In this document: positions 14,900 through 19,720 of the stretch, piece by piece
Numbering within the stretch: the stretch's first letter is position 1
How the letters are laid out: each line of letters opens with the position of its first letter
NCBI RefSeq assembly: GCF_044324875.1
Contig: NZ_CP172185.1
DNA: 64,000 bases
Source: Escherichia coli
GTDB taxonomy: Bacteria; Pseudomonadota; Gammaproteobacteria; Enterobacterales; Enterobacteriaceae
Reading direction: 5' to 3' (one strand)
Translations under genes and position numbers: made by a program
The notes under the pieces: generated by a model
What the model saw: only the letters and a program-made list of their open reading frames with translations
Told to the model about the DNA's origin: nothing
Database searches by the model: none

Positions 14900-15497
14900 A
14901 CGGTAAGCAGGCTCAGTCTGATGAAATGGTCAGGACCCACAGGAAAGAAGAACACGTCTCATCTCACCACAGGTCGTCTGACCTGCACGCATGACAAAAC
15001 GTCATGCGTAAGCCGATGAGTGAAACCGCTGTCAACAGAATTATAAAGCGAACCGTCCAGGATGACCGTGCAACAGACCATGGATTCCATCGCACTGCAC
15101 TTTATCCCCGCCCTTCTGGTGAGCACTACGCCACCGGAAGGATGACGCACCGAACAGGAAGAATAATTATTCTTTTATTTAAAGAATTTTATATAAAACA
15201 GAAACCTCCATACTAAATCAATAAACTGAGACCTTCACAGCATCACCCACCACCCACAGTGATATATAACAAAAAAGATACAATCACAGGCAAATACCAC
15301 GCTGAAAAACATTCAGCACAATTCAATTACGCCAGTGAGTAATCCGGTAACAGTATTACATACCTTCCTGCCAGAATCTCCACTCACATAAATTGTCAAA
15401 TAATTGCAAAAATTTACAATTAAAACGTATTGAAAATAATTTCTATTACCATTTAATAAAGTACTCCCTGATTACCTGATTAAGTGAGTCATCAAAC

Positions 15498-16547
15498 ATG
15501 AAACTTTTCAGTTCAAAACAGCGGACAAAAATTTATTTCAAACGGACTGTAATACCAGCAACTTTTCTTTTCGCATCATTTCCCGCTTTTTCACAGGATA
15601 TTGTCACCCTTTATACAACCAGAGAGCCCGGCCTGATTAAGCCACTTCTGGACAGCTGGACAAAAAGCAGCGGTATAAATGTTAATACGGTTTATATCAA
15701 GGACGGTATGCTGGAGCGGATTAAAGCTGAAGGAAAAAATTCTCCAGCCGATCTACTGATGACCGTCGATGCCGGAAATCTCATTGATTTAGTCGAAGCG
15801 GGAGTCACTCAGCCTGTTGAATCTGAAATACTGAAAACGGCCATTCCGGCAAATCTTCGTGGAGAAAATAACCACTGGTTTGCTTTATCCATGCGGGCCC
15901 GGGTACTGTATGCAGAAAAAAACTTCCCCATTGACAGCCTGCATTATGAACAACTCGCCAGCCCTGAATACAAAGGCAGGGTCTGCATGCGTTCAGGGCA
16001 GCACCCTTATAATACAGCATTGATTGCTGCCATGATCGCCCACCACGGAGAAGAAAAAGCAGAGGAGTGGTTACACGGTCTTAAAACCAACCTGTCACGA
16101 AAAGCAACGGGGGGCGATCGCGACATAGCCCGCGATATTTTAGGAGGGATATGTGACATCGGACTTGCGAATTCTTATTACGTCGGTCATATGAAAAATG
16201 CCAAAGAAGGGACAGATGCACGCAAATGGGGAGATGCAATTAAAGTAATCAAACCAGCCTTCGTGCAGGGAGGGACCCATGTCAACATAACCGGCGCAGC
16301 CGTTGCTCGTTATGCACCGAACAAAGAAAATGCAATAAAACTGATGGAGTATCTCATATCTGTTCCGGCGCAGCAGCAATATGCCAAAGCTAACTTTGAG
16401 TACCCGGTACTCAAAGGCGTTGATCTTGACCCTGTCATCAGAACCACTATTGGTGAAATAGATGTCGATAAAATTCCGTTAACTGACATCGTAAAGAACC
16501 GCAAACAGGCAAGCTTACTGGTAGATAAAGTTGGGTTCGATCAATAA
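15498..16547 (+). CDS. afuA: ferric iron ABC transporter periplasmic binding protein (FbpA/AfuA family)
   Basis: 349-aa ORF with signal peptide and FbpA-like sequence; first gene of a binding-protein/permease/ATPase triplet. Confidence 0.85.
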   Translation: MKLFSSKQRTKIYFKRTVIPATFLFASFPAFSQDIVTLYTTREPGLIKPLLDSWTKSSGINVNTVYIKDGMLERIKAEGKNSPADLLMTVDAGNLIDLVEAGVTQPVESEILKTAIPANLRGENNHWFALSMRARVLYAEKNFPIDSLHYEQLASPEYKGRVCMRSGQHPYNTALIAAMIAHHGEEKAEEWLHGLKTNLSRKATGGDRDIARDILGGICDIGLANSYYVGHMKNAKEGTDARKWGDAIKVIKPAFVQGGTHVNITGAAVARYAPNKENAIKLMEYLISVPAQQQYAKANFEYPVLKGVDLDPVIRTTIGEIDVDKIPLTDIVKNRKQASLLVDKVGFDQ

Positions 16548-18219
16548 ATCATTTTGGGCTTTAGTGTGGCGTTATCTTTTTTCTGCATTACGTTCCACGC
16601 TAAAGCCTTTACATCTGTGCTCGCTGTGTATCGCACTGGGTGTTCTTACACCTGTCATAACGTTATTCTGGCTGGCAACAGATGCAGACAGTTCGCAATG
16701 GAGCGGTTTTTTAACGTTTGTGCTACCTTCCGCTCTGCAGAATACCGTTATTCTGTTAACGGGTGTTGCTGTAATGACATGCGTTCTTGGTGTGGGGTGC
16801 GCCTGGGCAGTGACTGTCTGGGATTTTCCCGGCCGAAAAATGCTCAGCTGGGCATTAGTGTTACCTCTGGCCATGCCTGCCTATATTGTTGCTTTTGCAT
16901 GGCTCGATCTCCTGCATCCCCTGGGGCCTCTGCAAAATTTTATCCGTCTTTTATCGGGATTTGACAGTCCCCGTCAGTTTCGTCTGCCGGATTTGCGCTC
17001 CCTTCCCGGAGCGATAATATTACTCGGTCTTGTACTGTATCCTTATGTCTACCTGACCTGCCGACCGGTGTTTATCAATCAGTCCGCTCACTTACTGGAG
17101 GCAGCACGAACATTAGGTTGTGGCCCTGTCTCTGCTTTTTTCCGGGTAACGCTACCTCTGGCACGCCCAGCAATAGTGACAGGTATGAGTCTGGCCCTTC
17201 TGGAAACCCTGAACGACATTGGTGCATCTGAATTTCTCGGTATCCGGACAATCACAGTAACAGTCTACACCACATGGATATCACGCTCTGATCTTGCCGG
17301 TGCTGCACAAATTGCCGGCATAGTTCTGACATTTGTCTTCATGATTCTGGGTCTTGAATTTTTGTTCCGGAGAAAACAGGTATTCAGTAGTCGCAGTATG
17401 CGGGGAATACAACAAATCAGGATTTATGGCTGGCGTGGATGGTTGCTGTGCAGCATTACAGCACTGCCCGTTATTCTGGGATTTTGCGCACCTGTATTAT
17501 TCCTGGGATGGGAAAGTGCAAAGCGTCTCGGAGAAGGGATTACGATATCTTCATCATTGCTGTCAGCACTGAAAAATACATTGTTTCTCGCATCCGGTAC
17601 GACCCTGATTGTATCAGGGGTCAGTTTACTGGTGGTCTGGAGCGCACGGCACAGTGTACTGAACAGCCGTTTCATCGAATTCCGACGAACGGTCATGCAC
17701 CTGGCATCTTCAGGATATGCTGTTCCCGGTACTATTCTTGCTATCGGCTTTCTGCCGCCTGCAATGCTGGTTGATCACTGGCTCGCTGGTCTTCTTAATA
17801 TCAGCGGCCTTCCCCTCATGTCTGCAGGTATACTGTTAGTTATTTGCTGTGCGATTCGTTTCCTGGCCATTTCAACCGGAGCGCTTGATTCAGCCCTTGG
17901 TCGCATACCGCCGTCACTGGAACAGGCATCACGATTACTGGGAGAAAATGGCGCAGGGACTTTTGTCAGAGTTCATTTGCCATTACTTCGCCCTGCTCTG
18001 ATCAGCAGTGCGCTGCTGGTTTTCTCCGACGTGATGAAAGAACTGCCGACCACCTTACTGCTACGACCTGTTAACTTTGAGACCCTGTCCACACTCCTGT
18101 ATGCGGAAGCGGCACGTGGAACCTACGAACAGGGCGCAATTGCTGCACTGTTAATCGTACTTGCCGGCATACTCCCTGTGATTTTATTAGTACGCAGGCA
18201 AATGAACAGTCACCACTAA
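16531..18219 (+). CDS. afuB: ferric iron ABC transporter permease, two-domain (FbpB/AfuB family)
   Basis: Highly hydrophobic 562-aa ORF; overlaps afuA stop; true start codon uncertain (track ORF begins at TTG). Confidence 0.8.
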   Translation: MGSINKSFWALVWRYLFSALRSTLKPLHLCSLCIALGVLTPVITLFWLATDADSSQWSGFLTFVLPSALQNTVILLTGVAVMTCVLGVGCAWAVTVWDFPGRKMLSWALVLPLAMPAYIVAFAWLDLLHPLGPLQNFIRLLSGFDSPRQFRLPDLRSLPGAIILLGLVLYPYVYLTCRPVFINQSAHLLEAARTLGCGPVSAFFRVTLPLARPAIVTGMSLALLETLNDIGASEFLGIRTITVTVYTTWISRSDLAGAAQIAGIVLTFVFMILGLEFLFRRKQVFSSRSMRGIQQIRIYGWRGWLLCSITALPVILGFCAPVLFLGWESAKRLGEGITISSSLLSALKNTLFLASGTTLIVSGVSLLVVWSARHSVLNSRFIEFRRTVMHLASSGYAVPGTILAIGFLPPAMLVDHWLAGLLNISGLPLMSAGILLVICCAIRFLAISTGALDSALGRIPPSLEQASRLLGENGAGTFVRVHLPLLRPALISSALLVFSDVMKELPTTLLLRPVNFETLSTLLYAEAARGTYEQGAIAALLIVLAGILPVILLVRRQMNSHH

Positions 18220-18234
18220 AGGAACCCAACCACC

Positions 18235-18912
18235 ATGTCAGAAATTGCCCTGAGTCTTAATGATGTTCATGTTGTTTATACCAGAAGCAGACAGGTCGTG
18301 TTACAGGGTTTTTCAATGTCCGTTCATAAAGGTGAACTTGTATGTCTGCTTGGCGTTTCAGGTTGTGGAAAAACAACCGTATTACGAACTGTAGCAGGCC
18401 TGGAACGATTACAACAAGGTGAAATATTCATATCACAACGCTGTGTAGCCGGAGCCGGAATTCATCTCCCCCCGGAAAAGCGCAGGGTCGGAATGGTCTT
18501 TCAGGAATATGCTCTGTTTCCCCACCTGACAGTAACACAAAATGTAGCCTTTGGTCTGCGCCATCTGCCTTATGAACTACAGCATGCCAGAGTCACTGAA
18601 CTTCTGAAAATGGTTGAATTATTATCCTGTGCAAAGCGCTATCCTCATGAACTCTCAGGTGGACAGCAACAACGTATTGCACTTGCCAGAGCACTGGCCC
18701 CGGCCCCTGATATTTTGTTACTGGATGAGCCATTTTCCAGTCTGGATAAACAAACCAGTGAATACCTAGTGAAAGAAGTACGGGACCTGTTACGTAGTTC
18801 AGGTCAGACAGCCCTGATCGTTACTCATAATGAATCAGAAGCACTCGAAATATCAAACCGTATTTGTATCATGACGGAGGGTAATATAAGTTCGGTTCAG
18901 TCTGTGGTCTGA
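18235..18912 (+). CDS. afuC: ferric iron ABC transporter ATP-binding protein, short form (FbpC/AfuC family)
   Basis: Walker A GVSGCGKT, signature LSGGQQQR, Walker B LLDEPFSSLD, H-loop VTHN; only 225 aa, so the C-terminal regulatory domain seen in longer FbpC proteins is absent. Confidence 0.8.
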   Translation: MSEIALSLNDVHVVYTRSRQVVLQGFSMSVHKGELVCLLGVSGCGKTTVLRTVAGLERLQQGEIFISQRCVAGAGIHLPPEKRRVGMVFQEYALFPHLTVTQNVAFGLRHLPYELQHARVTELLKMVELLSCAKRYPHELSGGQQQRIALARALAPAPDILLLDEPFSSLDKQTSEYLVKEVRDLLRSSGQTALIVTHNESEALEISNRICIMTEGNISSVQSVV

Positions 18913-19720
18913 GACGTAACCGCACATTCAGGATCCCCTGTTCGTCATGGAAGCTGTATTATGTAACTATATGGAGGCATAGCAGATATTGTTGAAGAAA
19001 TACATCAAAAACACTCACATTTCTGGTACAACAGGAGTTGTAGATTTAATGATTATTGGGACGAAGTTACTACAGAAAAGCTGTACCGGGAACAGGTATG
19101 GTAGTTCCTTGTCACGTGTGGATTAAATGAGCATAATGCAGATCAATTACAAAAGGCATTTCGTAATAGCTCTGTTGTTGATTCGGTTACCATGATGGCT
19201 GTGGCAAGAGCCACCATGTGACTATACATGATATAATTATTTGTGTGATGTTGTTATACCTGAACAACAGGCATGAGATAATGGAAAAAATTATACATAT
19301 AACTCGGCTTTCCCATACTCCACTACAGAACAGTATATGATTCTGAACATTTCAATCCAGGCGCATTACATAACTATATTACATGTAACTATCTGGCCCT
19401 CAAATCATCGAGAGAATTGTTTAAAGTCAGCAGTCATAATCTGAATATAGATCATTATCACATAATTTAATTCTTAATTCACTACATTTTCCCTTGAATC
19501 CGGTATAATAAGACAGAGCACATGGCTGATGCTTTGTTTCGGTGTGGATAATCTGGTGGCGTCGGCTATGTGCTCTCAACAGTTAACTTATTATGAATAC
19601 TATTATCAATACAGGTTTTACATAAAAAAATAAAAAGCATCTCCTGATATCAGCCCAGTCTCTTTGGGCTAACCAGAATTATACATAAGCTATGCAGATA
19701 TTAATTTGCATACAAAACCA

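Follow-up and report, generated by a model that had tools for sequence, protein, structure and literature searches.

An iron-type ABC transporter operon and its downstream gap

We analysed a window of 64,000 nucleotides (nt) of Escherichia coli DNA (RefSeq assembly GCF_044324875.1, contig NZ_CP172185.1), in which a three-gene ATP-binding cassette (ABC) transporter operon is followed by an AT-rich gap without long open reading frames (ORFs). The original prediction, made from the sequence alone, had described an AfuABC-type iron transporter with a short ATPase, a loose Fur box upstream and a downstream stretch that was either a decayed gene or a non-coding RNA locus. The operon and the gap contain the following features (protein lengths in amino acids, aa):

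15498-16547, + strand: predicted ferric-iron binding protein of the class III FbpA type, 349 aa, with a signal peptide, periplasmic
16531-18219, + strand: predicted fused double permease of the FbpB type, 562 aa, with a TTG start and a 17-nt overlap with the upstream gene
18235-18912, + strand: short-form ABC ATPase, 225 aa, nucleotide-binding domain only
18913-19048, + strand: ancestral spacer from the ATPase gene to a GNAT gene, recognised by homology to locus L002 (see below)
19049-19440, + strand: GNAT-family N-acetyltransferase pseudogene, clear over its 5' 250 bp and represented past 19300 by short colinear traces only
19441-19720, no strand assigned: tail of the gap, without matches

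We compared the binding protein with proteins of solved structure in the PDB and found that its best match was FbpA of Bordetella pertussis (1Y9U; 67.6% identity over 315 residues, E = 5.5e-144). It was followed by FbpA of Mannheimia haemolytica, FutA of Trichodesmium and Synechocystis, FbpA of Moraxella catarrhalis and cFbpA of C. jejuni, with full-length matches to the M. haemolytica (1Q35, E = 4.9e-82) and M. catarrhalis (7LI0, E = 4.5e-62) proteins. The 28 best matches were iron-binding proteins without exception, and no AfuA-named chain appeared in the list of 38 PDB matches, which extended to E ≤ 10. AfuABC is a carrier of hexose and heptose phosphates (PMC4546632), and while the description of the operon as an iron-type ABC importer holds, the AfuABC name is therefore inappropriate.

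Class III ferric-binding proteins hold Fe3+ by three C-lobe tyrosines and a synergistic carbonate on N-lobe arginines (PMC10182148), to which class IV proteins add a His-Tyr pair (PMC6254336). The ligand residues are conserved in the binding protein as Tyr171 (HPYNT), Tyr227/Tyr228 (NSYYVG), Arg42 (TTREP) and Arg133 (RARV), and are in register with Tyr142, the YY pair, Arg10 and Arg101 of 1Q35, with the 1Q35 residue numbers counted off the printed alignment. The roles of these 1Q35 residues were reportedly also described by Shouldice et al. in 2003/2004. The N-terminal motif reads TTRE, without the class IV His-Tyr pair (judged by eye, with no class IV protein aligned).

The permease contains two BPD_transp_1 (PF00528) stretches and its length is within 6 residues of those of seven orthologues (560-568 aa; 562 aa in five), to which it is 64-96% identical. 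The three transporter genes have a G+C content of 47.4%, compared with 50.3% for the window. From the homology and the ligand residues we infer both substrate and mechanism: the periplasmic protein would bind Fe3+ via the three tyrosines and a synergistic anion on the two arginines, the iron would be handed to the fused twelve-helix permease, and a minimal ATPase dimer, composed of nucleotide-binding domains only, would power transport.

The short ATPase is shared by its orthologues

The ORF and motif checks bore out the earlier description of the ATPase as a protein of 225 aa with all nucleotide-binding motifs: Walker A (GVSGCGKT), the Q-loop, the LSGGQ signature, Walker B (ILLLDE) and the H-loop (VTH). 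The absence of the C-terminal domain of longer FbpC proteins was likewise confirmed, as the ATPase covers just the first ~220 positions of profiles and structures of 340-380 residues. It ends ~5 residues past the region aligned to 3FVQ, 1Z47 and 9J4R, and the C-terminal domain of ~110-140 residues is absent.

We compared the length of the ATPase with those of its orthologues. Among the 91 orthologues listed at 57-78% identity, 86 were 216-240 aa long, the other five being four shorter proteins and one of 268 aa. Their hosts include Buttiauxella, Citrobacter, Rahnella, Salmonella diarizonae, Providencia, Brenneria, Xenorhabdus, Edwardsiella and the betaproteobacterium Variovorax. In a library of representatives at 50% identity the nearest clusters were also short (231, 242, 261 and 266 aa, at 73-56% identity), and long forms of 335-380 aa dominated at ~55% identity and below. 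In seven orthologous loci from Citrobacter, Buttiauxella, Salmonella, Rahnella and Providencia the encoded proteins are of uniform size (binding protein, 345-349 aa; permease, 560-568 aa; ATPase, 222-233 aa), and the same operon architecture is found in L013, an independent contig with a 94%-identical copy. An unrelated convergent gene lies 4-50 bp past the ATPase gene in six of the seven loci and ~500 bp past it in the Salmonella locus. A tblastn search of 18880-19760 with the C-terminal domains of 106 long relatives recovered no relic of such a domain, the matches being scattered over both strands (best E = 0.012).

Because of the orthologue lengths, the seven operons and the lack of a downstream domain relic, we conclude that the short form of the ATPase is ancestral for the whole orthologous clade and not a lesion. 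It is no peculiarity of this locus, and orthologues of equal length are an outcome which the original prediction had named as counting against it. Loss of the regulatory domain across the clade could, although this is improbable, have produced an iron importer which escapes feedback control at the level of the ATPase. The short form marks a coherent clade of Enterobacterales and at least one betaproteobacterial genus (Variovorax), which is relevant wherever gene length is used to flag pseudogenes.

The gap contains a decayed acetyltransferase gene

The gap (18913-19720) is 808 bp long, has a G+C content of 36.4% and contains no ORF > 50 aa, in agreement with the original prediction of an AT-rich stretch of about 800 bp without ORFs > 60 aa. 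Using distant blastn against E. coli genomes, we found that window positions 19053-19289 resemble an intact, annotated GNAT gene (75% identity, E = 4e-37, 253 columns; L002:5994-6428), which is sited downstream of sitABCD in five other strains. The start codons of the two genes align at window position 19049, and the window copy contains several indels, including an 11-nt deletion. In a tblastn comparison (E = 5e-13) the relic showed three in-frame stops and a frameshift, with similarity gone after about codon 86. The intact homologue has an Acetyltransf_1 domain (PF00583, E = 6e-12) and the window copy has no intact reading frame. Further downstream there is a colinear trace at 19304-19329, equalled by 5 of 300 shuffles, and a tentative second one at 19405-19431, seen by eye (SSRELFKVS vs SSELLKMH). 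The suggestion of a decayed gene was thus correct, although the gene is an unrelated GNAT gene and not an ATPase domain.

The homology to L002 extends upstream of the GNAT gene. Window positions 18796-19008, which span the 3'-terminal 39 codons of the ATPase gene and continue past its stop codon, matched L002 5601-5810 at 68% (E = 5e-14), and a local alignment of 18918-19042 gave z = 8.8, with none of 300 shuffles as good. Because the ATPase end and spacer as well as the GNAT gene are homologous between the window and L002, we conclude that both islands go back to one arrangement, in which a short ATPase gene was followed by a spacer and then by a GNAT gene, and that 18913-19048 is the inherited spacer. 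The sit island lost the transporter and kept the GNAT gene; here the transporter was kept and the GNAT gene decayed. We regard the gap as gene debris, comprising the original spacer, a dead GNAT gene which once stood behind the ATPase gene on the same strand, and ~280 bp which are unassigned and contain one strong hairpin. About two thirds of the gap is accounted for, mainly by the wreck of the GNAT acetyltransferase gene.

L002 itself comes from E. coli CFSAN061770. Its positions 5601-5810, downstream of sitABCD and upstream of the intact GNAT gene, contain the unannotated 3' relic of an fbpC-like short ATPase gene followed by the spacer, and the fragment TVLIVTHDESASLKRSNRI matches ATPase residues 192-210. 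A second iron-transporter remnant is thus present beside sitABCD. The only distant GNAT homologue whose context was available (P0122, 58% identity, on L015) has no fbp gene beside it, and its locus does not resemble the tail of the gap. Both the GNAT pseudogene, for RefSeq, and the short-ATPase relic of the sitABCD island would be gains for annotation.

The upstream region and the candidate Fur box

We examined the region upstream of the binding-protein gene for promoter-like and Fur-like elements, with Fur sites scored by consensus matching to the 19-mer GATAATGATAATCATTATC and to the 7-1-7 consensus. The two best candidates were:

15393-15420, + strand: best sigma-70-like promoter match, TTGTCA, 16 nt, TACAAT, at 10 of 12 consensus positions
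15431-15450, + strand: candidate Fur box TGAAAATAATTTCTATTACC, which overlaps or directly follows the -10 elements of two promoter-like matches

The promoter-like element, a match to the consensus and no more, is unchanged in L013. The sequence previously noted as loosely resembling a Fur box is found exactly at 15431-15450; its resemblance is at chance level. It matched the 19-mer at 13 of 19 positions, a score equalled in 110 of 500 shuffles (22%) of the same AT-rich upstream region and also found in 47 of 364 windows of 350 bp (13%) across the 64 kb, and it matched the 7-1-7 consensus at 10 of 14 positions, which 30% of shuffles reached. As a reference, the sitA promoter of L002, which is generally regarded as Fur-regulated, scored 15/19 and 12/14 in the same scan.

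The orthologous operons of other genera contain TGATTATCATT-type sites at -78 to -92 which score 11-13 of 14 on the 7-1-7 consensus, close to the sitA reference, including a box in C. amalonaticus (TGATATTGATTATCA) at 13/14; only 0.4% of shuffles score ≥ 12 of 14. By manual alignment the window sequence ATTACCATTTA corresponds to ATTATCATTTA of the orthologues, although MAFFT places a gap differently. The upstream region of L013 is 95% identical throughout, which is too near for footprinting of the Fur-like site. Judging by these sites, control of the family by Fur and iron is plausible; the operator in the window is degenerate and the regulation of this copy is uncertain.

Two conserved dyads, TAAATGTnAATnATTTA and TGATTATCATT, were seen at about -130 and about -90 upstream of the binding-protein gene in L004, L007, L009 and L010. 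The TAAATGTnAATnATTTA dyad, which is a perfect palindrome in Rahnella (GTAAATGTGAATCATTTAC), is Fur-like and could be the site of another metalloregulator. The scan of the window also returned a 19-mer, CATACTGAGAACCTTTATC, as false matches to the Fur consensus; its four copies (32978, 42623, 49937 (+) and 52486 (-)) are probably the ends of insertion sequences.

A hairpin in the tail of the gap

One structured element lies in this tail:

19504-19595, + strand: long imperfect hairpin of 92 nt, with core arms at 19515-19532 and 19559-19576

The hairpin is formed by an inverted repeat with 18-nt arms which are 83% complementary. The + strand RNA has a predicted stability of -36.5 kcal/mol (z = -4.66, with none of 200 shuffles as stable). 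The fold of the - strand is weaker (-21.5 kcal/mol, z = -2.69), as each of the three mismatches between the arms becomes a G.U pair in the + strand RNA. A TATAAT hexamer is found at the 5' foot of the hairpin, with no good -35 element or promoter before it and no T-run after it. All known copies of the hairpin are identical and belong to carriers of the island. A search of the genomes of 100,044 species with the degenerate arm pattern AGAGCACATRGCYGAYGC gave, among the matches listed, single arms only, in unrelated taxa and in a chance-like manner.

No Rfam 15 covariance model matched either strand of 15000-20300 at E ≤ 1, so that the earlier suggestion of a non-coding RNA locus gains no support from known RNA families, and no plasmid matched the gap by distant blastn. 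We treated the tail as debris with one possibly meaningful hairpin.

Two further roles for the hairpin were considered and rejected. GNAT genes are common integron cassettes; however, the R'/R'' core sites of an integron attC site are not in register in the hairpin, and the intact GNAT gene of L002 has no such hairpin downstream. An intrinsic terminator for either of the convergent genes was rejected as there is no T-run behind the hairpin, the sole match to the terminator pattern (19080-19102) being inside the GNAT relic.

Carriers and genomic setting

Window positions 15200-20300 are 100% identical to the chromosome of E. coli 23CRST013. Among 5426 complete E. coli genomes, 11 matched this region, all of them on the chromosome and 10 with the entire region. 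In 10 of the 11 genomes none of the three reading frames is shortened (99.9-100% identity), and the same holds for L013, whose proteins are 94-96% identical to those of the window. In the carrier strain MS 119-7 (L136 3000-6841) the cassette is inactivated: ISEc62/IS100 truncates the binding-protein gene, and an IS2 insertion divides the ATPase gene. Two further features delimit the operon and the gap:

14263-18903, + strand: conserved block common to the window and the independent contig L013, comprising a 168-aa ORF, the promoter region and the three transporter genes
19721-20203, - strand: DUF1097 membrane-protein gene (Pfam PF06496, E = 9.5e-19), annotated in RefSeq, convergent, which bounds the gap and is outside the transporter

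By blastn, the block corresponds to L013 1541-6171 at 94.4% identity, and the similarity ends 9 nt before the ATPase stop codon. The 168-aa ORF (14393-14899, + strand) has no Pfam match and is co-inherited with the transporter genes, with a 164-aa counterpart in L013.

The island adjoins a tRNA-Ser gene, and its neighbours in the annotated record are ghrA, ycdX, ycdY and ycdZ. Its other content includes CP4-type genes (GTPase, antirestriction protein, CbtA/YeeU), IS66-family elements and a dead Ag43 gene. Window positions 13161-14072 (- strand) and the wider island are of the CP4-57/YeeP type, with this GTPase, antirestriction protein, CbtA/YeeU and dead Ag43 gene together with ISEc8. Further downstream there are a pxpABC-like/biotin carboxylase cluster, a gamma-aminobutyric acid (GABA) transaminase gene, lldD, lldP and a group II intron.

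Discussion

We consider it very likely that an intact ferric-iron importer of the class III FbpABC type was acquired here by horizontal transfer, on a rare island, with an ATPase whose shortness is ancestral and a gap which consists of gene debris. Several observations weigh against this interpretation. RefSeq names the three proteins "extracellular solute-binding protein", "ABC transporter permease" and "ABC transporter ATP-binding protein", which are generic labels for ABC transporter subunits only, and leaves the gap unannotated. None of the three proteins reached an NCBIfam equivalog cut-off. FbpA of B. pertussis is reported to bind ferric-siderophore complexes as well as free iron (cited in PMC8891985), so that the exact ligand of the binding protein here is uncertain. 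The Fur-like site of this copy is at chance level, the destruction of the cassette by insertion sequences in one carrier (MS 119-7) argues for weak selection, and the tail at 19441-19720 had no match in E. coli outside the carriers of the island, in plasmids, in Rfam or in the fetched loci.

An alternative explanation for the short ATPase is that a nonsense or frameshift mutation truncated it and that the AT-rich stretch is its decayed C-terminal regulatory domain. This would fit with the nearest curated profiles and solved structures, which are all 340-380 aa long and of which the query spans only the first ~220 positions. However, 86 of the 91 orthologues have the short length, the seven orthologous operons end at the same point with an unrelated gene within 4-50 bp in six of them, none of the 106 C-terminal domains gave a significant tblastn match downstream, and the sequence after the stop codon is homologous to the spacer behind a short-ATPase relic in another island, and we regard truncation, which the orthologue lengths by themselves contradict, as extremely improbable. 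It is also highly improbable that the operon is a true AfuABC importer of hexose and heptose phosphates which has been mis-annotated as an iron transporter. AfuABC was itself long annotated as iron transport and has an identical three-gene layout (PMC4546632), and the pyridoxal-phosphate binding protein of an AfuABC-like operon of Actinobacillus (PMC8427247) gives a marginal match to the binding protein (E = 1.9e-4); against this, the 28 top PDB matches bind iron, no AfuA-named chain is listed, and the protein keeps both sets of class III FbpA ligands, the tyrosines for iron and the arginines for the anion.

The operon could also be a silent or decaying passenger of the island, with the degenerate Fur box and the AT-rich flanks reflecting lost regulation and, speculatively, silencing by H-NS. 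Its rarity (11 of 5426 complete genomes), the carrier whose cassette is interrupted by ISEc62/IS100 and IS2, the dead GNAT gene next to it and a Fur-like site weaker than in the orthologues are all compatible with this. Nevertheless we think it unlikely, as the three frames are intact and nearly invariant in 10 of 11 genomes and are also intact in the 94%-identical L013 copy, which would fit with continued selection. For the gap, or its last 280 bp, the competing explanation is a functional + strand non-coding RNA, or an element which regulates or stabilises at the RNA level. The stability of the + strand hairpin relative to shuffles, its weaker counterpart on the - strand and the TATAAT hexamer at its foot favour such a function, but there is no Rfam match, no -35 element of quality, no T-run terminator and no homologue outside identical copies of the island, and inverted repeats are common mobile-element debris in islands. 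A functional RNA of this kind is improbable. For the 92-nt strand-biased hairpin itself, we see only a slight chance that it is a functional RNA on the operon strand, e.g. a 3' stabiliser or a small RNA of an undescribed family.

Under our preferred interpretation of an intact importer followed by debris, the operon encodes an accessory ferric-iron ABC importer which belongs to a known class and is in no way unusual; its minimal ATPase is typical of its clade, and a dead acetyltransferase gene lies behind it. The generic label "ABC transporter" of the three genes can give way to class III FbpABC-type ferric-iron importer, and the name AfuABC should not be used. As accessory iron uptake in ~0.2% of complete E. 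coli genomes, many of them from poultry or humans, the operon could be of minor relevance to fitness studies. Beyond annotation there is little consequence.

Comparison with known systems

We compared the operon with characterised importers of similar layout. The E. coli thiamine importer ThiBPQ belongs to the same importer cluster and shares the fused double permease and the short ATPase, and the ThiQ profiles (213 and 234 positions) are matched end to end by the ATPase. A thiamine system was nevertheless rejected, as the ThiQ/ThiP/ThiB profiles scored far below their cut-offs (162 vs 245 bits; 25 vs 679 bits). The AfuABC systems of Actinobacillus pleuropneumoniae and Citrobacter rodentium resemble the operon in their three-gene layout and in their historical annotation as iron transporters; unlike AfuABC, the binding protein here keeps iron ligands and has no listed similarity to AfuA-named chains.

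The FbpABC (HitABC) systems of Neisseria gonorrhoeae and Haemophilus influenzae are, like this one, three-component ferric-iron importers, and the ATPase core aligns with FbpC (3FVQ) over residues 16-220 (E = 1.9e-53). Their binding proteins, however, are of class I and match only at E ~ 1e-15. The 3FVQ FbpC is 359 aa long and extends ~140 residues past the aligned core; this C-terminal extension, a regulatory domain, is absent from the whole clade described here.

The class III FbpA proteins of M. haemolytica (1Q35, 1SI0) and M. catarrhalis (7LI0) share with the binding protein their fold family, the three tyrosines and the N-lobe arginines for the synergistic carbonate (PMC10182148). The match to Mannheimia FbpA is far weaker than that to Bordetella (1Q35, E = 4.9e-82, vs 5.5e-144). 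The Mannheimia and Moraxella FbpA systems serve in the piracy of iron from transferrin and lactoferrin by respiratory pathogens.

The closest studied system is FbpABC of B. pertussis (1Y9U, 2OWS, 2OWT), which is iron-repressed (PMC8489951). Its binding protein is 67.6% identical to the one described here, both precursors are 349 aa long (PMC8891985, Table 2) and both systems have a fused permease of ~556-562 aa. Unlike the Bordetella system, the copy in our window is found in E. coli, on a genomic island.

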